Below are positions 3,430 to 53,939 of a DNA stretch of 64,000 bases, piece after piece. Within the stretch, counting starts at the first letter, position 1. Every line of letters starts with the position of its first letter. The stretch comes from a virus, in the IMG/VR virus record IMGVR_UViG_3300028610_001314; one strand, written 5' to 3'. The notes under the pieces were generated by a model. It did not search any database. It was not told the origin of the DNA and saw nothing but the letters and a program-made list of their open reading frames with translations. Both the position numbers and the translations under genes were made by a program.

Positions 3430-3845
3430 TAGACTACCTCAAAGTGAACTAAATCTTGGAAGTCTTGATCAGTTACAGGCTCTCCATCCATGTCCCAGTT
3501 CCCGCCCCATCGGATAGCTATTCCTAATTTAGCCGCGGCTGCTTGGATAATTCCAGCGAGGACACAACAATGAAGCTTGTTCCAGCTAATCTTTCCATTA
3601 ATATATGGAACTGCATCAAAAGCTTTAGCTGGCATCGAATTGTGCTTACTATTCGGCCATTTGACTTTGGTCTTTTGTGGAGATGTATGGAAATAAGAAT
3701 CCTGAACCTCCTTCTTTCTATGACTCTCTATTATCGCAAAGTCCATAATTCCATAAGCCATAGCTTCTCTAGCTACATAAGCTAACCCTGATTCAAGATT
3801 TTCAATATGAAGTATCGAGTTTCTACCAAATCTGTATTCGCCCAT
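3429..3845 (-). CDS. Endolysin, peptidase M15 (L-Ala-D-Glu peptidase type)
   Basis: SKHN...AFD, IRWGGNWD and DLVHFE motifs. Confidence 0.9.
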   Translation of the reverse strand: MGEYRFGRNSILHIENLESGLAYVAREAMAYGIMDFAIIESHRKKEVQDSYFHTSPQKTKVKWPNSKHNSMPAKAFDAVPYINGKISWNKLHCCVLAGIIQAAAAKLGIAIRWGGNWDMDGEPVTDQDFQDLVHFEVV

Positions 3846-3846
3846 T

Positions 3847-4008
3847 TTAATCAGCCCTCATTTCTTCAAGCATCTTTTCAATTCGTTCGTCGGCATCAAT
3901 AATAGTAGTGTCGATTTCTTTCAAAGACTTACATGATTGCTCTGTCTCGCGCTCCTGCGCTCCATTTTTGCCGTTAAATCTCTTTTTAATTCTATCGAGA
4001 AGATTCAC
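3847..4008 (-). CDS. Small lysis-cassette protein (53 aa, GTG start, not in ORF track)
   Basis: Hand translation MNLLDRIKKRFNGKNGAQ...EEMRAD; GGAG RBS; fills the gap between neighbours. Confidence 0.5.
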   Translation of the reverse strand: MNLLDRIKKRFNGKNGAQERETEQSCKSLKEIDTTIIDADERIEKMLEEMRAD

Positions 4009-22145: not shown

Positions 22146-22943
22146 CTAATTAGCTTCCATTTTTCCAAGCATTCGCTCCATCTTCACTCTATGATCATGA
22201 AAAGCACCATTGGACATTTCCAAAGTTTTTTTAATCTGAATCGCATTATAACCCTGCTTTGCTAAATTAAAAACTTGTAACCGCCTTGGTGAAAGCTTGC
22301 TGATGAATGCTTTTTGAGTACCATTTAAATTTTCAACTCTTCTTAAGAGCAATTCTAATTTAGTGAGCTTCCTCTTGAAGCCCATCTTTTCATGTTTTCT
22401 GATAGTGCCATAGGCTCCATCGGGGCCAGACAACCGACTAGCCACCGAGTAATGCGTTGTTACATCCTCTAAAAACCCAACTGTCTCTGGACCAGTATAC
22501 CCCAAATAGTGCCTGAGATACACAACCCTTCTCATCTTGTCAGTCAACAATGGCCAGCTTTTATTTATTAAATCTCTTGCAACTACTTGATCTTCACAGC
22601 TTTTAACAGCCACTTTCGGATGCTTATGATATTTAGATATGTCATTTTTTTTAGGATGGTGCAGCTTATACCACCAATGATCTTTTCTTTTCTCGTAAAG
22701 AATTGTATGCAAGCTCATCATATAGCCACGCACAAAACTGTTTGTATAAGTATTAACCGCAAATTCTGATTTATTGGCCTTTCCCGATCTTTTCCGTTCT
22801 AAAGCAACCGACATACCAAGCATACCTTCTGAATAAAATTCTTCTCGATCCTGAGCAGGAATTGCTTTAAGGTTGCAATAATGCCCAATAATGGCTTCAG
22901 CCTGCTTGATACATTTATCTATAGTCTGTTGATCAATTTCCAT
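22146..22943 (-). CDS. Sigma-70-like factor with additional C-terminal LuxR-type HTH
   Basis: DREEFYSEGMLGMSVALE...F...TY...VRG (region 2-like), LTDKMRRVVYLRHYLGYT (region 4-like), LSPRRLQVFNLAKQGYNAIQI (LuxR-like). Confidence 0.6.
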   Translation of the reverse strand: MEIDQQTIDKCIKQAEAIIGHYCNLKAIPAQDREEFYSEGMLGMSVALERKRSGKANKSEFAVNTYTNSFVRGYMMSLHTILYEKRKDHWWYKLHHPKKNDISKYHKHPKVAVKSCEDQVVARDLINKSWPLLTDKMRRVVYLRHYLGYTGPETVGFLEDVTTHYSVASRLSGPDGAYGTIRKHEKMGFKRKLTKLELLLRRVENLNGTQKAFISKLSPRRLQVFNLAKQGYNAIQIKKTLEMSNGAFHDHRVKMERMLGKMEAN

Positions 22944-26665: not shown

Positions 26666-26682
26666 TTTCCTGTCCTTTGTTA

Positions 26683-26703
26683 AGGGGAGTGGTTAGCTCC
26701 CCT
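26683..26703 (-). other. Intergenic hairpin AGGGGAG-CTAACCA-CTCCCCT
   Basis: Perfect 7-bp inverted repeat after the large beta-helix gene; no strong U-tract. Confidence 0.6.
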
Positions 26704-26712
26704 GTTGGTTGA

Positions 26713-30990: not shown

Positions 30991-31048
30991 TTGGTCCTCC
31001 TTTTACAGTTACCCCCTGCGACATGCAGGATACTGAAGGATGTTAAGG

Positions 31049-31279
31049 TTAGTCTTTGGAAATCCAGCCATCTTCGATTCTGCCATCACCGCCACAGTCA
31101 GGGCAAGATTCACTTCCGTCATGGGAAGCCTTCGACCCTGTTCCCGTACAATGTGAACATTTACGATACTTGTTTTTATCCAACTCAACAGCGGTTTTAA
31201 CTTCATTAATCTTGGCTTCCAGATCGTCACATTTATTTAAAACATCTTGGATTTTGTCTATTACATCTTGTTCGGACAT
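31049..31279 (-). CDS. Small protein with DnaJ-type zinc finger
   Basis: CSHCTGTG...CPDCGGDG after a short coiled coil. Confidence 0.65.
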   Translation of the reverse strand: MSEQDVIDKIQDVLNKCDDLEAKINEVKTAVELDKNKYRKCSHCTGTGSKASHDGSESCPDCGGDGRIEDGWISKD

Positions 31280-31310: not shown

Positions 31311-31332
31311 GTTTAAGGTTAATTAAATAGGC

Positions 31333-32307: not shown

Positions 32308-32332
32308 TTTCTTTAATCCTCCCTTATAAACC

Positions 32333-32359
32333 CCCCGGGAGTGGATTAGACCCCCGGGG
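32333..32359 (-). terminator. Hairpin after major capsid gene, probable leaky terminator
   Basis: 10-bp stem CCCCGGGGGT/ACTCCCGGGG, loop CTAATCC, weak GGTTTAT tail. Confidence 0.55.
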
Positions 32360-32383
32360 TACGTGGGTTAAGTTAAGTTGTTT

Positions 32384-35332: not shown

Positions 35333-37444
35333 TTATGCCTCCGCTGATACCGCCGCAACATTCTCTTTACCGGGGCTTTGTGTCCCTGTGCTTGCAGCTT
35401 CTTTTTCTTTGTCACCATATTTAAGCTCTGCCATTTGTGCGGCTCTCTCCATTTCTGCTTGTTCCTGGGCCTGAATCTCGTAATGATGCATATCGGTATG
35501 ATTAATAAGCACTTTTTGATTAGCTACCGGCCAATCTTTAAAGTCTGGATTTAAAATAACTTTGGTGTGATTGTCATAATGTACCTGATGATTGTCGTAT
35601 TTGTAATAAGGATCATTGCTTAGAACTTCCACTTCTTGAGTTTCTTCGTTAAGCTTGGCGAAAAACAAACCTTCAAGAACCGGTTCAATCCCGGTCCCTT
35701 CATCGGCATCAACTTCAATCTCTTTATCGGTTGCCTGAGAAGCCATGCTGTTTTCACGCCCGGCCCTTTCCTCATGTACAGCATTTACAACCGGCAACCA
35801 GGACATTCCAAGGCGCTTCATTATTTCATACTGTAATCTGGGGTTCTCGGGTATGGCTCCGAAAAAGCCTTGTTCGATCAGTTTCATAATAAATTGGTTC
35901 TGGCCGGCATTTGTAGTCGCAACACCGCTGTCTTTTTCCATGCGTACATCGGTATTATCGTAAAGATCAGCACCTTTAAATGCTTTTATGAGAATTTCGT
36001 TCCCTTCCCCGGTCATTTTCAAAAGTCGTGTCTCTGTGATTAGTTCCTTTGCGAGAATCAATTGTTTCTTTTTAACCCGGTTCCAACTTCGATAAAATCT
36101 TTCTACGTCTGGGCTATGACTCATTTCAGCTGCTTCACGAAGTATGTCAACCATGATTCCGGATGCACCACTCGTAGGAGACTGACCCTTTAAAATATTC
36201 TTGGGATCTCCACCAGCATCTTGAATGTTTTCGATATTAAGTTTTCTTTCAGCCAATACCTGGTCGGGAAATGGGGTGCCTTTGACGACTTCGGGTTTTG
36301 ATCCATATGCCTGAGTAGCTTCATATTGTAGCACCAAAAGGGTTTGTCCTTGCTCTGACTGTCGTTTAAGAACAAGATCTGTTGGAGTTAATACATAGGG
36401 ACGGCCCAAGCTTGCACGATTAGAAGAAAAATCTTTGTCGATTTCGTTGATCATCTTCTGTGGACTGATCAGATCGTCTACGGAAGATGTTGCCCAGAAG
36501 CTTCCAGGGGTGTTATTATATTTAAAATCAGTAATGGTATAAAACCATTCGCCTTCATCATTTACCTTAATGGGCATTTTGGTCTCATTTTCTAAAACCT
36601 TACCGTCTGCTACAGCAACATACCTGCCTTTGGGATATTTTTTGGTAGGTCGATATTCAACTTCTTGGAAATATACTAAATCCTTGCTGTCCTTTTCAGT
36701 AAATGATCCTTGTTCTAAGCTGCGAGTTTTCCATGGACTGACATTCGCTACAAGGGTCATGAGCCGTTTTTCATATTCCAGGTCTATGCCGCCTACGCTG
36801 GCGGTACCCAATTTCACCTTGTAAGTATCTTCAACCCATTCTTTATCCTTTAAAGATCGAATTCCGACATAGCTTTTTTGTTTTAAGAGAACACCCAGGG
36901 AGGGAACCACTATGCTAAAGCCAATTATGTTTTCAATCGTAACCTCACCCTTGGATTGAACCTTTCCGTCTGCATCTGTAAAATATATTCCATTATCCAA
37001 ATTAGCATATGTTCTGATAAATGCATTCCCGGTCAAGATAAGCCACAGGGCTGCCCATTCCTTAATGTCTTCAATTTCATTGCAATTATCGTTATCAAGA
37101 GAACTCATGGCCATGCCTCCGAGTTTTGCAGCATCTTTATCTTTCTGGGTCTCGGAGTTAGGCCATATTCTGGCAGCATATTTTTTGTTGAGAATGAGGG
37201 CTTTCATTGAACGGACATGATCTCGGATCTTGTTGGCAACGGGGGTAAATTCGGCAGGATTAATAAAGGACGGTCCAAAACCACCCTGTTCTACAAACCA
37301 TGAAATCCATTGTTCCCCTAAATAAAACAGGATGTTTCTATACCATGTTAATTCCCGGATTGTTCTGGAATAGTCGGCATTATACCGGAATATGGTGGAA
37401 AAGTCTGTTAGGATTTCTGCATCATCTGGTTTAGATTTTGCCAT
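35333..37444 (-). CDS. Portal protein
   Basis: 703 aa; NKIRDHVR, D.AAKL, DDLISPQKMINE, SGIMVDIL motifs of podovirus-type portals; position. Confidence 0.9.
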   Translation of the reverse strand: MAKSKPDDAEILTDFSTIFRYNADYSRTIRELTWYRNILFYLGEQWISWFVEQGGFGPSFINPAEFTPVANKIRDHVRSMKALILNKKYAARIWPNSETQKDKDAAKLGGMAMSSLDNDNCNEIEDIKEWAALWLILTGNAFIRTYANLDNGIYFTDADGKVQSKGEVTIENIIGFSIVVPSLGVLLKQKSYVGIRSLKDKEWVEDTYKVKLGTASVGGIDLEYEKRLMTLVANVSPWKTRSLEQGSFTEKDSKDLVYFQEVEYRPTKKYPKGRYVAVADGKVLENETKMPIKVNDEGEWFYTITDFKYNNTPGSFWATSSVDDLISPQKMINEIDKDFSSNRASLGRPYVLTPTDLVLKRQSEQGQTLLVLQYEATQAYGSKPEVVKGTPFPDQVLAERKLNIENIQDAGGDPKNILKGQSPTSGASGIMVDILREAAEMSHSPDVERFYRSWNRVKKKQLILAKELITETRLLKMTGEGNEILIKAFKGADLYDNTDVRMEKDSGVATTNAGQNQFIMKLIEQGFFGAIPENPRLQYEIMKRLGMSWLPVVNAVHEERAGRENSMASQATDKEIEVDADEGTGIEPVLEGLFFAKLNEETQEVEVLSNDPYYKYDNHQVHYDNHTKVILNPDFKDWPVANQKVLINHTDMHHYEIQAQEQAEMERAAQMAELKYGDKEKEAASTGTQSPGKENVAAVSAEA

Positions 37445-37464
37445 TATGTCCTTGCCTTGGGCAC

Positions 37465-37529
37465 AAAAAAAGCGAGTAGCATGGACGGTGAACCGAATTT
37501 GTCACCGCATGGAGTCCATGCTACTCGCT
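37465..37529 (-). terminator. Strong intrinsic terminator in the portal leader
   Basis: 16-bp perfect stem AGCGAGTAGCATGGAC/GTCCATGCTACTCGCT with inner 5-bp stem, followed by T-tract, about 20 nt before portal ATG. Confidence 0.75.
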
Positions 37530-37726
37530 TAAATTTTGCATCCCCCGGTTAATTAGGCCGGGGTTAGCCCAAGTTTTTAGTTATGCATATATGTTGTCAA
37601 AATGCCTTTCGATATTGCATTTATTGCAAACTATTGTATTTCCAAACCGATAATTCTCTTCGGAAATATAAGTGTAATGAAAAATTCGACAATATAAAAT
37701 CCGCAACCATGATACATGCTTTATCA

Positions 37727-37990
37727 TTAAGTCACCGGAACTCTCACTTCATCTTTCTGAGCATCAATAAGCTTCTGAGCCTCGATCGCCAGATTGTTTT
37801 CAGCCTGAGTTTGCTTGAGCTTATCCTTAGCACTCGTTTTTTGCTCTTTATTATATAGGGCAAGTTCGCCCAAATTTCTTGAAATTAAAGCGGCTACTAG
37901 CTTGTCTTCGCGGTTTTTGGAGGCCCTTCTGTCATAAGCGTTCATCAATAACAGAAAGATTATGAATAGTATGAAAATGGAGGTTTCCAT
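37727..37990 (-). CDS. Small membrane-anchored protein
   Basis: N-terminal hydrophobic segment IFILFIIFLLLM. Confidence 0.6.
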   Translation of the reverse strand: METSIFILFIIFLLLMNAYDRRASKNREDKLVAALISRNLGELALYNKEQKTSAKDKLKQTQAENNLAIEAQKLIDAQKDEVRVPVT

Positions 37991-39579: not shown

Positions 39580-39812
39580 CCTTTGTCCACTACATTAAGT
39601 ATAAGTTTTGTTATATCTATATTTCCATTTTGTCCATTAAACGGGAGAGGGAAATCAGGATTCCTGGACTCAATTTCTACAAAATGTTCGACTTCCTTTC
39701 TGGAGTTGGCAAAAACCACAACCTCTCCTTTAATGTTAATATCAAAAGCTATCCCAAACATTTTATATCCTGGCTTCACCTCTACTATGTGTGATCCGTC
39801 AAATTTAATCAT
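39576..39812 (-). CDS. Hypothetical protein
   Basis: 78 aa, ATGA-coupled to terL. Confidence 0.5.
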   Translation of the reverse strand: MIKFDGSHIVEVKPGYKMFGIAFDINIKGEVVVFANSRKEVEHFVEIESRNPDFPLPFNGQNGNIDITKLILNVVDKG

Positions 39813-41263
39813 CCATACCTCCCAGTATAATTCTGCTCTGCCTGAATCTGAGCAACAATCTGCTCATACTCTTTTTGAGCTGCCATAGATGCAGGATCTA
39901 AATCAGACTTTTTCTTTTCATGAACCTCTGGTAACTTCATTGGTCGGGCCATAACTATGTGACATGATTCATCATATGTATGGTCAGCTTGTAAATCAGC
40001 CAAATCCTCGACATTATCATCATCCATACACAGCGATGGAATCGTGCTTATAAAATGCTTGCAGGTATCGTAAACCTGAAGCATCGGTCTTGTTTTACCG
40101 TCCTTTGGTATTGCCAATCGCTCCCTGAACTGCCTTATTTTAAGCTTTCTGTCTGGATCTCCTGGCCGAAGGGTAAGCCCAAGACCATTAAACACCTCTG
40201 CCGTACTCGGACCTTGACCACCGCCCTTATAGTCTGGTTTTTTTTGAAAGCAATCACGGCCCGCTAACCTGATAATCGGCTTGCCTGTAATTCCAAGCTT
40301 CAACTCTCTCTGAATAACACCCTTGGCAACATCTGAATCTTGTATTCTTAACCCATCATTCGCAACCTCGTCCCATCCATACCATTCTGCAAAACGATAT
40401 ATCCTGCCATCTCCATCTACCCACCACCAGCCAATAGAAAACGGTGCGCCAAAACCCCAATCGTATGTCATATACAAAGGAGCTGCATCTGGAATAGGCA
40501 GTGGTGTGATAATATGATGATCTTCAGATAAAAGAAACGCCTGCCCGATATAAACGTCCCAATTACCATCAAGCCATGCCTTCCGAAGCATAGGGTCACG
40601 AATTGACATCAATCTTCGAACATACTTAGGATCATTCTCGCATAGAATTTTATTATCTTTAAGGAATGATGGAATAAAAACCCGCGATTCCCCAATATCA
40701 TTATACATTACTGTCCCGGGTTTCATGTTGAATTCAGAACCAAGCTTAAAAGATAGCTTTACGTCATTGTGTCCCGGTCCTCCGGGATTACCAGTACCAA
40801 ACATCCTGCAGGGAACTCCATGGGGCGATCTGAGAGAACCTTGAAGCTTGTCAACCATCTTAATAAAGAAAGGAAATGTGGTACATTCATCAATGCTGAT
40901 TTCCGTATAATTCTCTCCAACATGGTCATTACACATCTCTAACAGTTTGATTGCAGACATGATAAATTTACCACCGTTTTTAAACCTAACGGTATTGACC
41001 TGCTGGTCCCCTCCAATTCTTTCGGCCGGGAGTCCACCCCTGATCAATTCATCAATCCTATTACGGATAGTGGAAAACTCCTTATATTTCCGGCGAACAA
41101 CTAAACCGTTCCATGCGTAATTGTATTTTTCAACTCCGCGGAGATGCCGGCCGATTAGACAATCAGTTTTTCCTCCACCGCGGGAACCTCCAAATAATGT
41201 AAAATCAGCCGGGCAGGTAGCCGCGTCTACTTGAGGGCCTGGTTGTGGGGTCCATATTGCCAT
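39809..41263 (-). CDS. terL: Terminase large subunit
   Basis: Walker A FGGSRGGGKT, Walker B ISIDE, GTGNPGGPGH, RNase H-like YDWGFG and DHTYDE. Confidence 0.95.
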   Translation of the reverse strand: MAIWTPQPGPQVDAATCPADFTLFGGSRGGGKTDCLIGRHLRGVEKYNYAWNGLVVRRKYKEFSTIRNRIDELIRGGLPAERIGGDQQVNTVRFKNGGKFIMSAIKLLEMCNDHVGENYTEISIDECTTFPFFIKMVDKLQGSLRSPHGVPCRMFGTGNPGGPGHNDVKLSFKLGSEFNMKPGTVMYNDIGESRVFIPSFLKDNKILCENDPKYVRRLMSIRDPMLRKAWLDGNWDVYIGQAFLLSEDHHIITPLPIPDAAPLYMTYDWGFGAPFSIGWWWVDGDGRIYRFAEWYGWDEVANDGLRIQDSDVAKGVIQRELKLGITGKPIIRLAGRDCFQKKPDYKGGGQGPSTAEVFNGLGLTLRPGDPDRKLKIRQFRERLAIPKDGKTRPMLQVYDTCKHFISTIPSLCMDDDNVEDLADLQADHTYDESCHIVMARPMKLPEVHEKKKSDLDPASMAAQKEYEQIVAQIQAEQNYTGRYG

Positions 41264-41625
41264 TATTTTACGTTTGTTCCTTCAACTCCACGCATTGTGC
41301 GATCCGCTGTCCGGCTCTGCAACCAGAGCAAGCCTTCTTGAATTTTTGTCAGCGCCAGTGCATTTTCCCTGCACTTGAACTCCCCAGCCTGAAAATGTTC
41401 GAGTCGGTCAATAACAATTGCAAGTAAATCTTCCTGGTGACATCCGTTCACACCGTTTTCTTTTATGGGGCCGTTCTGAAATCGAATATTCCCAAACCGT
41501 CCAGCGATTTCATCGGCAGAAGTAACGGCCGGTGAAAGATAATACTCATGACAAGCTCCACCTTCTCCCGGTTCATCAAATACTTGAATCTCTACATTTT
41601 CATTTGAATTTTTAACTGTCCTCAT
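41263..41625 (-). CDS. tad1: Tad1-family anti-defence sponge (Thoeris/CBASS signal sequestration)
   Basis: GEGGACHEY, IRFQNG, EDLLAIVIDRLEHFQAGEFKCRENALALTKIQEGLLWLQSRTADRTMRGVEGTNVK aligns along its length with Tad1 as recalled ([70 protein letters not shown]); start at MRTVK with AGGAG RBS. Confidence 0.85.
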   Translation of the reverse strand: MRTVKNSNENVEIQVFDEPGEGGACHEYYLSPAVTSADEIAGRFGNIRFQNGPIKENGVNGCHQEDLLAIVIDRLEHFQAGEFKCRENALALTKIQEGLLWLQSRTADRTMRGVEGTNVK

Positions 41626-41833
41626 TGTCTTTCTCCTTTTCCGGTTTATGGTTTTTATCCTTCTTACACTTCCCCTCACACCCCTTACAAGGTGCTTTCA
41701 TAAACTCCATTGATTCAAGAACTTCTATGTATTCCTTTTTAATCAGCAATAGGCACTTACCATATTCCGGGCATGGTGTTTGGAATAGACAGGCTTTGAA
41801 TATCGGGCAGTTTATTTCTTTGTCTTTTGGCAT
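41612..41833 (-). CDS. Small Cys-rich hypothetical protein
   Basis: CPIFKAC...CPEYGKC...CKGCEGKC; start uncertain. Confidence 0.45.
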   Translation of the reverse strand: MPKDKEINCPIFKACLFQTPCPEYGKCLLLIKKEYIEVLESMEFMKAPCKGCEGKCKKDKNHKPEKEKDNEDS

Positions 41834-41838
41834 TATAA

Positions 41839-42270
41839 TTAATAGCCTCTTTTCTGTCTCCAGTTCCAAAGTGTCATGTTTTTCATGCCTAATAATCGTG
41901 CGGCCTCTGTATTGTTCCCTCTGGACTTTTCAACCGCTTTATCGATCAAAGCATGTTTATAATTTTCAAGCGCCTCTTTTAAATTTATAGGCACTTCAAT
42001 ATTACACAAAGCTGAATTTTCATCTGTAATAATCTTAACCCGATCATCTTTGCTTTCTCTTGTCCTATCAATCATCTTGATAGCATCCACTATACGTTGC
42101 TGAATATTCAAATTAAGCACAGATATTGATTGGTTTATTATGATTGGAGCTTTGATGTCTTGCTCTATTTTTAAAGCATTAAGGGCATTGATTGAGGTTT
42201 TGGATGCTTGACCGCCTTGATTAGCGAGTATGTCTAAAAGTAGGTTTTTGGTGGTTTCGAGTTCTTTCAT
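41839..42270 (-). CDS. Protein with C-terminal Fis/NtrC-type HTH (HTH_8)
   Basis: LKEALENYKHALIDKAVEKSRGNNTEAARLLGMKNMTLW. Confidence 0.75.
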   Translation of the reverse strand: MKELETTKNLLLDILANQGGQASKTSINALNALKIEQDIKAPIIINQSISVLNLNIQQRIVDAIKMIDRTRESKDDRVKIITDENSALCNIEVPINLKEALENYKHALIDKAVEKSRGNNTEAARLLGMKNMTLWNWRQKRGY

Positions 42271-42503
42271 GCAACCCCGCAATAAGCATCAATTAAATCA
42301 AACAACTTCTCCATAGATTTTATATTCTTTCTCCAACCTAAAACCAACTTGCTCTTTTTGTCAAGCTTACGACCTAAATGCCATTCTCCACATTTAGGAC
42401 ATAAATAAGGCTTTCCCCAGACTGATCTGTGCTTATCTGTTCGTTTTAAAACTGAAGCTGCATGTTTTCTGCTTTTGTAGCCTATTTTACGGCAATTTCT
42501 CAT
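42267..42503 (-). CDS. Small Zn-finger protein
   Basis: CRKIGYKSRKHA...PYLCPKCGEWHLG pattern common in phages. Confidence 0.65.
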   Translation of the reverse strand: MRNCRKIGYKSRKHAASVLKRTDKHRSVWGKPYLCPKCGEWHLGRKLDKKSKLVLGWRKNIKSMEKLFDLIDAYCGVA

Positions 42504-43333: not shown

Positions 43334-43362
43334 GGGGCGCTTTGGTTATGAGGGTGCGCCCC
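43334..43362 (-). other. Intergenic hairpin GGGGCGC-ACCCTCATAACCAAA-GCGCCCC
   Basis: 7-bp GC stem between vWA gene and next ORF. Confidence 0.55.
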
Positions 43363-43410
43363 GAACCCACTTCAAAAAGGAACACTGTAAAGGCTCCTTT
43401 TATCTCAAGT

Positions 43411-45065: not shown

Positions 45066-45472
45066 CACACACACCCCTTTCTTATCAATTCAATTCGCTC
45101 GTTAAGCGTTCTGGTAATCTCGCCCCCTATTTTGCGGAGTTGTTGCTCGGCGTGTTGTAGATTAAACTTCATTTCAATAAGCGGGACGCGGTTTTGTTGC
45201 CTTATAATTGCGGCCCTAAAGCCTTGGTTCGGTTGCTTGATATAAGGATTAAAGTTCTTGTGGGTATCTTGGCACTCAAAATGCCACGCCACAGCATCCC
45301 GCAACTCGGCAAGCTCTCTATCGGTACGTTCAAGCGCATCCCGCAAAACCAAGCTTTCCTGCATTAATATTTCTTTGTCTTTCTCGGCTTTTTTAAGTAC
45401 CAACCACCTGTCCTCAAGCTCGGTCTTCAGGCGTATGATTTCGGCCTGTAGGTTCATTGATTCTGGTGTCAT
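45065..45472 (-). CDS. Coiled-coil hypothetical protein
   Basis: 135 aa, ATGA-coupled. Confidence 0.6.
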   Translation of the reverse strand: MTPESMNLQAEIIRLKTELEDRWLVLKKAEKDKEILMQESLVLRDALERTDRELAELRDAVAWHFECQDTHKNFNPYIKQPNQGFRAAIIRQQNRVPLIEMKFNLQHAEQQLRKIGGEITRTLNERIELIRKGCV

Positions 45473-45831
45473 TTTTTCACCTTCTTGCCTTCCTGTTGAT
45501 CCTTGGGAGCCAAAACACTATTCGCCAAAGGATTGACCCACGGCTTTTCTTTTGAAGGTTTTTCTGATTCGATCTTTTTGGCAGGAGAGGATTTAATCTT
45601 TTCCTCGGTTTTCTTCATTTCGTGCTGATCAGGTTGAGGTTCGGGTTTCTGTCTGAACTCTGCTTCTAACTCGTGAGAAACAACGACTCTTTTTCCCTGG
45701 CTCATATTTGCCTTATGTAAACTGACCAGATAATTACTTACAGATCTGTCAACAAGCTTTGCCTCTGCTCTAATAGATTCCCAAATCTCAGAAGATGGTA
45801 AATAAATAAGTTTTCGGATTCCCTGGGCCAT
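45469..45831 (-). CDS. Putative ribbon-helix-helix DNA-binding protein
   Basis: LIYLPSSEIWESIRAEAKLVDRSVSNYL; first gene after a sigma70-like promoter. Confidence 0.5.
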   Translation of the reverse strand: MAQGIRKLIYLPSSEIWESIRAEAKLVDRSVSNYLVSLHKANMSQGKRVVVSHELEAEFRQKPEPQPDQHEMKKTEEKIKSSPAKKIESEKPSKEKPWVNPLANSVLAPKDQQEGKKVKK

Positions 45832-45869
45832 TATTCCTCCCGAATAGAATATATACTTTGTTAATACTT

Positions 45870-45897
45870 AGTATATACCCCATTCAGAAGATGTCAA
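45870..45897 (-). promoter_or_regulatory. Sigma70-like promoter
   Basis: TTGACA-N16-TATACT upstream of 45831. Confidence 0.6.
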
Positions 45898-46089
45898 GAA
45901 CTATTTGTCCTTAACTAAATCCCGGGCCATTAAATTAGCCTTATGCAAATCAGTCAAATAACGACCTGCAGAAACACGCTTCCCGGTTAAAGACGACAAC
46001 CGAAACGACTCCTTCATAACAGAATCCCAATCATCAGGATCAACGTAAATGTTTACCCTTTTTCCTTTTAACATGGTGTTTTCCCTTGG

Positions 46090-49763: not shown

Positions 49764-50139
49764 TTTGTTTAGTTTCCTGATTTAGTGGCGCTAGATTGCT
49801 CTGTGTTAGTTCTTTGTTTGAAGGGATAATAGTAAGTATGGGTGAGATGGAACTCTTTCTTATAATGGTGTTTGATATGTTTAGCGATAGTTTGAAAGAA
49901 TCTTTTTAAATGGATTGATTTTTGTATTTTAGGTCTGGCGTCCATGATGATTAAATGATTAGCATAATGGTTTAGTGAATGTCAATGATATTTTAAGGGT
50001 TGTGTAAGGTTGTATAAGGTTTGAAAGGTTGAATAAAAATGTTGAAAATAAATATATTTTTAATTGGGTGATTTAATGGTGTTTTATTGGATGGTTGAAA
50101 TTAATTGCAATAAAAGTGTATTTATTTTGTATTTTATGC

Positions 50140-50168
50140 TTGACACGGTATATTTAATGATTTATATT
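50140..50168 (+). promoter_or_regulatory. Early sigma70-like promoter
   Basis: TTGACA-N17-TATATT with AT-rich upstream region. Confidence 0.7.
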
Positions 50169-53676: not shown

Positions 53677-53862
53677 ATGAAGAAACCAATTAATACTAAA
53701 GAAGCGGCCAAGATCCTGGGGGTTATTCCCCGAAGAGTAACGGCTATGATTACAGCCGGAAGACTGAAAGCAAGAAAGCATGGGCGTGACTGGCTAATCG
53801 AACACGCCGACCTTGAGCCTGTTATGGTACGCAAACCTGGCCGGCCGGCAAAAGCAGATTAA
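53677..53862 (+). CDS. Excisionase-like HTH_17 DNA-binding protein
   Basis: INTKEAAKILGV..RRV..MI..GRL.A.K.GRDWLI. Confidence 0.85.
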   Translation: MKKPINTKEAAKILGVIPRRVTAMITAGRLKARKHGRDWLIEHADLEPVMVRKPGRPAKAD

Positions 53863-53873
53863 CCACCCAAAAA

Positions 53874-53905
53874 TAAAGCCCCCAGCATGAACGCTGGGGG
53901 CTTTA
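53874..53905. terminator. Terminator at convergent junction of early and replication blocks
   Basis: TAAAGCCCCCAGC-ATGAAC-GCTGGGGGCTTTA perfect 13-bp stem. Confidence 0.8.
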
Positions 53906-53939
53906 ACCATCCAGTTGCAATTTCAGTATATAATCAAAC

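Follow-up and report, generated by a model that had tools for sequence, protein, structure and literature searches.

The clamped terminator junction, a widespread structured RNA family located between virion genes in phage contigs

The leader that precedes the portal gene of the window (the whole stretch of viral DNA that was analysed, 64,000 nt) is one copy of a widespread family of structured RNAs, ~105-130 nt in length, which is new with respect to Rfam 15 and to GenBank phages and was named 'clamped terminator junction'. A preliminary description of the same DNA had noticed a strong terminator at this place and proposed that the structural genes are gated by antitermination; the observation was confirmed and the proposed lambda-like gate was partly supported, the element itself being a member of a new structured-RNA family. 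The family is defined by two covariance models and about 60 sequences with clear compensatory changes. One RNA module thus recurs in dozens of phages with barely related proteins, ahead of the genes for major head, major tail and portal proteins, and this distribution points to a shared control of virion-gene expression that is independent of recognisable regulators. Little is known about the control of late operons in uncultured phages. In addition, the family supplies a natural case of a terminator with flanks that cannot pair until it has been read through, a design of interest for synthetic operon insulation.

The element within the late operon

On the minus strand of the window tightly packed genes, all co-oriented, extend from ~49.9 kb down to 3.1 kb. 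Upstream of the element this block includes a gene of the Fis-type HTH kind, a small Tad1-like gene, the large terminase gene and ~2.3 kb of small ORFs, and downstream of it come the portal gene, a Gp10-like gene and the major head gene. For the portal protein 219 homologues were obtained at E ≤ 1e-50. Within the late-strand block the best consensus promoter lies at 45897-45870 (-), 8.4 kb upstream of the element (TTGACA-16-TATACT, 11/12 matches), and an equally good one was found on the plus strand at 50140-50168 (11/12 matches); between 45.9 kb and the element the consensus scan detected no promoter as good as 11/12. The features of the locus are as follows.

39809-41263 (-): large terminase gene, upstream of the element
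37727-37990 (-): 87-aa small gene, translationally coupled to the portal gene in most relatives
37581-37727 (-): 48-aa ORF acquired together with the element; it starts on an ATG that overlaps the stop codon of the 87-aa gene, a place taken by the portal ATG in relatives
37600-37595 (-): TTGACA, upstream of P1
37448-37579 (-): whole RNA element (A-rich 5' flank, P1, P2, A-rich linker, P3 with U-tract, P1 3' strand and the start of the ribosome-binding site (RBS) region)
37573-37567 (-): P1 5' strand, 7 nt, starting 7 nt downstream of the 48-aa ORF's stop codon
37563-37543 (-): P2 hairpin, a 6-bp GC stem (37563-37558 / 37548-37543) with a 9-nt loop (37557-37549)
37531-37542 (-): A-rich linker, pairing with the U-tract in the predicted fold of the read-through RNA
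37465-37530 (-): P3, terminator-like arm with a perfect 16-bp stem, an inner 6-bp hairpin and a T7 run
37530-37515 / 37485-37470 (-): perfect 16-bp stem of P3
37521-37516 / 37512-37507 (-): mini-hairpin inside P3, with a 3-nt loop
37471-37465 (-): T7 run
37462-37456 (-): P1 3' strand, beyond the U-tract, closing the 7-bp P1
37442-37455 (-): Shine-Dalgarno sequence (37453-37449) and portal start codon (37444-37442), abutting P1 directly
35333-37444 (-): portal gene, 703 aa, first gene downstream of the element; weak P22_portal and PHROG matches

The motifs that had been named earlier, i.e., TTGACA, the GC hairpin, the 16-bp stem with its T-tract, the mini-hairpin and the closing flanks, are all present in the sequence. 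The terminator was said to lie 20 nt before the portal gene, and the T-run is indeed separated from the portal ATG (37444) by exactly 20 nt (37464-37445), which include the Shine-Dalgarno sequence. As had been argued, there is no room for a promoter between the two, so that the structural genes depend on read-through. In its letters P3 displays a canonical-looking intrinsic-terminator anatomy, with a GC-rich stem-loop and a U-tract directly after it on the transcribed strand. The same anatomy (GC stem and T5-T7) is shared by the five variants that were collected with no T-run as a condition, the loci L002, L003, L006 and L029 included. In a scan of the whole 64-kb window for hairpins with a T-run the site of the element (dG -31.9) was the strongest by far, the scan being insensitive to interrupted T-runs, by which it overlooked a hairpin at 53835-53939. 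The terminator was missed by the consensus scan because the loop limit there is 8 nt.

The 5' strand of P3 in the window can take either of two partners, a proximal one that yields the mini-hairpin (37521-37507) or a distal one (37485-37479), and the loop of P2 contains the 6-nt palindrome TAATTA. Since the 3' strand of P1 is placed beyond the U-tract, P1 is able to form only in the read-through RNA. The minimum-free-energy fold of 37440-37610 (171 nt) is a three-way junction of P1, P2 and P3 with dG of -64 kcal/mol, compared with a mean of -40.9 +/- 3.8 kcal/mol for shuffled controls (z -6.1; 0/200 as stable). Searches of the window for tRNA and tmRNA found none.

Members of the RNA family

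The search pattern was derived from the P3 arm only (GC stem, apex GGTGCC, GC stem and five T), P1, P2 and the linker being absent from it. At least 119 loci in IMG/VR carry this pattern and most of them also carry P1, P2 and the A-rich linker. By pattern and covariance-model searches no fewer than 60 distinct copies were recovered from phage contigs of IMG/VR. Because the large member set was gathered with a pattern demanding a GC stem and five T, the invariance of the T-run in this set is partly by construction. Two early pattern scans returned mostly chance or coding matches, and a scan with a refined pattern added nothing.

For an independent view of the window a covariance model, R2, was built on 45 members with the window, L002, L003 and L006 left out. 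When the window was searched with filters off, the element was matched over its full length with 56.5 bits and an E-value of 3e-11 (E-values from the short model calibration being rough), and this match was the only one in 64 kb. The model gave zero matches in 0.91 Mb of unrelated IMG/VR loci. In 100 pattern loci it gave 75 matches, mostly one per locus, with two each in L308 and L261. Both copies of a contig belong to one operon and to the same strand, at a distance of 5-6 kb (3835-3956 and 9174-9292 in L308; 289-408 and 6264-6362 in L261).

The family was also looked for in established resources. No match at the gathering threshold of Rfam 15 was obtained in the window or in 10 canonical loci, and scans by E-value gave chance hairpin matches far below threshold. 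The region of the window and two canonical elements, compared by blastn with 50,697 GenBank phage records, had no match. Model R2 had no match in a sample of 151 genomes of the phylum to which one MAG carrying a related portal gene belongs, and on three MAGs the phage contig itself was the only match. Hammerhead, retron msr/msd and phi29 pRNA-like RNAs were considered as identities and rejected on missing core motifs, missing neighbour genes or lack of an Rfam match. A catalogue of structured RNAs from IMG/VR comprises 8,495 candidates; terminators are predicted for 1,241 of these, and some candidates precede portal (GP20) or capsid genes (PMC10690425). It draws on the same data source as the present work, and the motif described here may already be among its candidates, to which the catalogue assigns no function (PMC10690425).

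Covariation and conserved features

A check of the structure across relatives, proposed along with the original observation, was run with covariance models and revealed a conserved, covarying fold. In 48 members aligned to model R1 (a model-fitted alignment, which favours the structure) 93.9% of the cells assigned to pairs are paired, compared with 66.5% in shuffles, and 26/28 pairs show changes on both sides. The covariation score was 0.669 vs. 0.212 in shuffles, with 0/500 shuffles as high, and it was at most 0.19 in a slid control, in which the 3' partners were moved by 1-3 columns. The slid control and the pairs read by eye argue that the signal is real despite the model-fitted alignment. 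An alignment of 40 members with MAFFT and RNAalifold recovered the structure only in part, and the model-fitted alignment was used instead. The frequent G.U pairs indicate that it is the sense strand that constitutes the folded, functional RNA.

P1 is 95% paired and has both-side changes at 6/7 pairs in the 48 members. The linker helix behaves similarly: the base that interrupts the U-tract covaries with its partner in the linker in 35/36 scorable members (C-G 13, G-C 11, G-U 2, A-U 9, unpaired 1). Immediately 5' of P1 most members have an A/T-rich, -10-like tract, and an A-rich unpaired tract is conserved at this place. The mini-hairpin and the closing flanks, first noted in the window as a competing structure and a possible closure beside the RBS, proved to be conserved and covarying across the whole family.

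Two features of the hairpins deserve separate description. The loop of P2 contains a 4-nt palindrome in 38/48 members, GGCC in 28, AGCT in five, GATC in four and TTAA in the window, and the loop of P3 is palindromic in just 7/48; this suggests that the P2 loop may be selected for self-complementarity, e.g., for loop-loop dimers. In P3 the apex GGUGCC is conserved, and the upper 5' strand can pair with either of two 3' partners in 44/47 members. Pairing with the proximal partner forms a small hairpin with a GUGC loop and pairing with the distal one forms a long uninterrupted stem; between the two partners lies an invariant CAY, and both track the 5' strand through more than a dozen different sequences.

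Genomic setting and the insertion in close relatives

In the family members examined the copies always lie between co-directional ORFs. The upstream stop precedes P1 by 0-48 nt, and the downstream start usually follows P1 by 9-66 nt and has a strong Shine-Dalgarno sequence of the GGAGG type. The downstream genes encode major head proteins, head proteases, scaffolds, major tail or tube proteins, portals and tail fibres. The upstream genes are mostly portal genes, and large terminase, head closure, neck and protease genes also occur; in L308 one copy follows the portal gene and the second the head-closure gene. From this pattern of neighbours it follows that the element tends to stand where a block of genes for virion proteins needed in abundance begins. 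Many members stand between core genes without any small ORF.

The history of the window locus was approached through homologues of its portal protein from IMG/VR, JGI metagenomes and GTDB contigs. In most of these relatives the homologue of the 87-aa ORF ends with a stop codon that overlaps the portal ATG, i.e., the two genes are translationally coupled, and there is no element between them. In the window the corresponding ATG now starts the 48-aa ORF, and this ORF and the element together form an insertion of ~283 nt with TAATG on both sides. The element is present in three other near-relative lineages as well (L002, L003, which is identical to L039, and L006). The small ORFs upstream of it in these lineages are mutually dissimilar, as judged from translations compared by inspection, and downstream of it lies either the portal gene or two small Cys-rich ORFs and then the portal gene. 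In L165 a different terminator occupies the same hot spot, and in L029, a distant phage with a portal protein 38% identical, the element, likewise preceded by a 48-aa ORF, is located downstream of the portal gene and ahead of the next head gene. The preliminary description had regarded the element as a late switch at the portal gene. This was not supported, since most relatives are devoid of the element and have the portal gene overlapping the upstream stop, and elsewhere the element is displaced or duplicated.

The Cys-rich ORFs between the hot-spot terminator and the portal gene were located at 921-1242 in L002, 4641-4947 in L006 and about 590-800 in L165. One of them ends with CRQCSSCHGCR, the other resembles a zinc ribbon. 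The first has a start similar to that of the portal gene, as if the 5' end of the portal gene had been duplicated during the insertion.

A proposed attenuator or insulator inside the operon

The function that we favour, although we put its chance somewhat below even, is that of an operon-internal attenuator/insulator, the read-through form of which is clamped by P1 beside the RBS, keeps that RBS free and probably bounds or protects the downstream message. Lying inside the long co-directional late operon, the element would be transcribed along with it, and some polymerases would stop at P3 with its U-tract. Such stopping may insulate the block of virion genes from the transcription of the upstream accessory and packaging block. 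Polymerases that pass on would transcribe the 3' strand of P1, which is predicted to clamp the element into a compact three-way junction just a few nucleotides from the RBS of the next virion gene. The folded domain might then keep this RBS free and might serve as a protective or processing boundary of the downstream message.

P1 covaries and forms only past the U-tract, hence the read-through RNA must be under selection. On the level of sequence, the strong covariation of P1, P2 and P3, the recovery of the window copy by an independent model and the rank of its hairpin with T-run, the strongest in the window, argue for the attenuator/insulator, as do the operon-internal setting and the distance of 8.4 kb to the nearest strong promoter on the same strand. 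Against it stands the placement of a terminator ahead of the proteins required in the largest amounts (major head, major tail), which runs counter to intuition unless polymerase reads through efficiently. The partly constructed invariance of the T-run in the large member set also speaks against it, and the model leaves the two-partner design of P3 and the self-complementary loop of P2 unexplained.

Bistable P3 and the palindromic P2 loop are explained neither by the attenuator/insulator nor by the four rivals discussed below, and for this reason a more elaborate version is kept under consideration, namely that of a regulated attenuator before major virion genes, which would represent a new and widespread class of phage cis-regulatory RNA. 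The bistability of P3, together with kissing dimers of the P2 loop or the binding of a factor to it, would set the level of read-through, and P1 would then lock the protecting or activating form. We regard this version as possible, though unlikely. In general design the element resembles HK022 put, the Bacillus EAR element and the conAn system (PMC8191782), which are operon-internal structured RNAs that decide whether polymerase passes terminators. It differs from them in having the terminator within its own structure and a closing helix that can form only once this terminator has been passed; no Rfam match was obtained either, the EAR model included.

RNA processing as the strongest rival

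The strongest rival of the attenuator/insulator is a role in RNA processing or stability, which we judge unlikely. In this case a cut would be made in the ~35-40-bp coaxial rod of P1 and P3 (RNase III) or in the A-rich strand 5' of P1 (RNase E/Y), and the likeness to a terminator would be secondary. The cut might split the short-lived upstream message from a downstream message with a protective fold, thereby raising the yield of major virion proteins. In the pap operon intercistronic processing yields stable mRNA of the major subunit, and in T7 RNase III sites lie between genes. The element is located after low-copy and before high-copy genes, P1 and the linker:U-tract helix both covary, the A-rich unpaired tract 5' of P1 is conserved and P1 ends beside the Shine-Dalgarno sequence, all of which is consistent with such a role. 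The T-phi terminator and the RNase III sites of T7 are comparable in being operon-internal late hairpins that pass part of the transcription or define stable mRNA ends. However, T-phi follows the capsid gene, whereas the element precedes major virion genes, and each T7 site consists of one hairpin, with neither a closing clamp nor a second hairpin. Against processing, the sequence gives no sign of cleavage, and a GC stem with five or more U directly after it is required by a terminator but exceeds the requirements of a helix.

The proposed lambda-type gate

In the gate originally proposed, by analogy to lambda pR'-tR', a constitutive promoter just upstream of the element would give a small RNA unless a phage antiterminator, possibly acting on the apical hairpin of P3, modifies the polymerase. 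The terminator is present with no promoter after it, and the strong intrinsic terminator before virion genes that have to be reached by read-through is what the element shares with lambda tR'/6S RNA and Q. This part of the analogy therefore stood. The promoter part did not: sigma-70-like sites just upstream of the element, the type of site that was searched for, occur in 3/47 members compared with 3.3% of shuffles, i.e., at background. By the scan criteria such a site is absent in the window, L003, L006 and L029. The hexamer TTGACA at 37600-37595 was correctly seen, and the weak -10 attributed to it was a generous description, since the consensus scan pairs it with no acceptable -10.

The A/T-rich, -10-like tract before P1 in most members could be taken for the missing half of the promoter, but a transcript starting 6-8 nt after it would omit the 5' strand of P1, the outer pairs of which nevertheless covary. 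Candidate promoters within the element were rejected too. By eye, the GG-GC spacing of a sigma-54 promoter in P2 and the linker exceeds the required one by 3-4 nt, and a sigma-70 promoter within the linker and P3 would have a -10 without A2; an SPO1-type middle promoter in the U-tract has no matching -35.

The conserved apex GGUGCC and the bistable P3 could be a switch under protein control, and Pseudomonas phages commonly have 5'-UTR terminators, with a long and a short form of the transcript (PMC10914365), which would suit the gate. The preliminary description recognised no Q homologue, and none was found here, as no Q-, N- or other antiterminator-like family was detected among the 40 window proteins scanned (Pfam, PHROG). 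The regulators put forward as candidates (41839-42282, 45469-45831 and 22146-22943) likewise belong to no known antiterminator family in these scans. Further evidence against the gate comes from the setting, i.e., the upstream ORF stops just 0-48 nt from P1, element-free relatives couple the portal gene to the upstream gene, and the position of the element varies, with two copies in one operon in some cases. Unlike lambda tR', the element has no conserved promoter or pause-site region that could be found, it is optional among relatives and does not stand at the head of the late operon, and its terminator is enclosed by a closing helix with the 3' strand beyond the U-tract. Altogether we consider the gate improbable.

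Cassette terminator and small RNA as further possible readings

The element could also be the plain terminator of a moron or cassette and a recombination linker, carried along with inserted small genes and otherwise without a role in portal expression. It came with the 48-aa ORF as the ~283-nt insertion flanked by TAATG, dissimilar small ORFs adjoin it in close relatives, and L165 has another terminator at the same hot spot. A moron is an independent unit of promoter, gene and terminator inserted between late genes, and the window resembles the moron terminators of lambdoid late operons (PMC3594210) in having a small extra gene and a terminator that late transcription must pass. As differences, no promoter of the inserted 48-aa ORF was found and its ATG overlaps the previous stop, and the terminator belongs to a conserved multi-helix RNA family that is found between core genes without any moron as well. 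The PeSL cassettes of T4-type phages provide a second parallel, as conserved intergenic regulatory cassettes that border variable small ORFs and form a possible exchange point (PMC4122927, PMC2839356). Those cassettes consist of an early promoter and a stem-loop and are present in many copies per genome in non-structural hyperplastic regions (PMC4122927, PMC2839356), whereas the element has no promoter, is found in a single copy in the 64-kb window and resides in an operon of virion genes. Most loci hold one copy, many members have no small ORF beside them, and the covariation in P1, P2, the type of P2 loop and both P3 partners goes beyond the needs of a terminator or of a stretch of homology. 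We thus hold a mere cassette terminator to be decidedly improbable.

Small RNAs that arise from early termination are known from late regions of prophages. That the terminated product acts in trans as such an RNA, dimerising through its palindromic P2 loop or using the 5' strand of P1, which is unpaired in terminated RNA, as a seed, is very improbable indeed, as no promoter was found and the covariation of P1 argues that its 5' strand is selected for pairing within the same RNA.

Other hairpins and repeats in the window

Ahead of the major head gene, the gap 32308-32383 contains a hairpin that resembles P2, located at 32334-32358 (-) and made up of 9 bp, all GC. As TTTAT follows it, this hairpin may act as a second, weak attenuator in front of the capsid gene. 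It shares with P2 of the window the arms CCCGG...CCGGG, a loop that contains CTAAT, and TAACC in front. The arrangement CCCGG-N5-16-CCGGG is found in the window only at these two places (2 observed vs. 0.19 expected). GC-rich hairpins without T-runs, often beside TAACC, were also seen in the late-gene gaps 26666-26712, 30991-31055, 31317-31332 and 43334-43410 (-). The motif YTAACC is not enriched genome-wide (69 observed vs. 62.8 expected), yet it is present in most of these short hairpin gaps.

Just upstream of the large terminase gene, the 138-aa protein encoded at 41263-41679 (-) has a sub-threshold match to the Acb2/Tad1 hairpin domain. In the gap 45832-45900 (-) the promoter at 45897-45870 is followed immediately by a long, near-perfect hairpin of ~20 bp (dG of the gap -36), which may be an operator or the leader of a transcription unit that the element would close 8.4 kb downstream. 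The divergent region between the late-strand block and the early genes of the plus strand (49946-50063) contains four close copies of a CAACCTT-like heptamer, which could be operators or iterons. In the replication region, the hairpin at 53835-53939 (-) that escaped the scan is a canonical GC-rich one of 13 bp, flanked by an A-tract and by a T-rich run broken by one A, and it looks like a bidirectional terminator.
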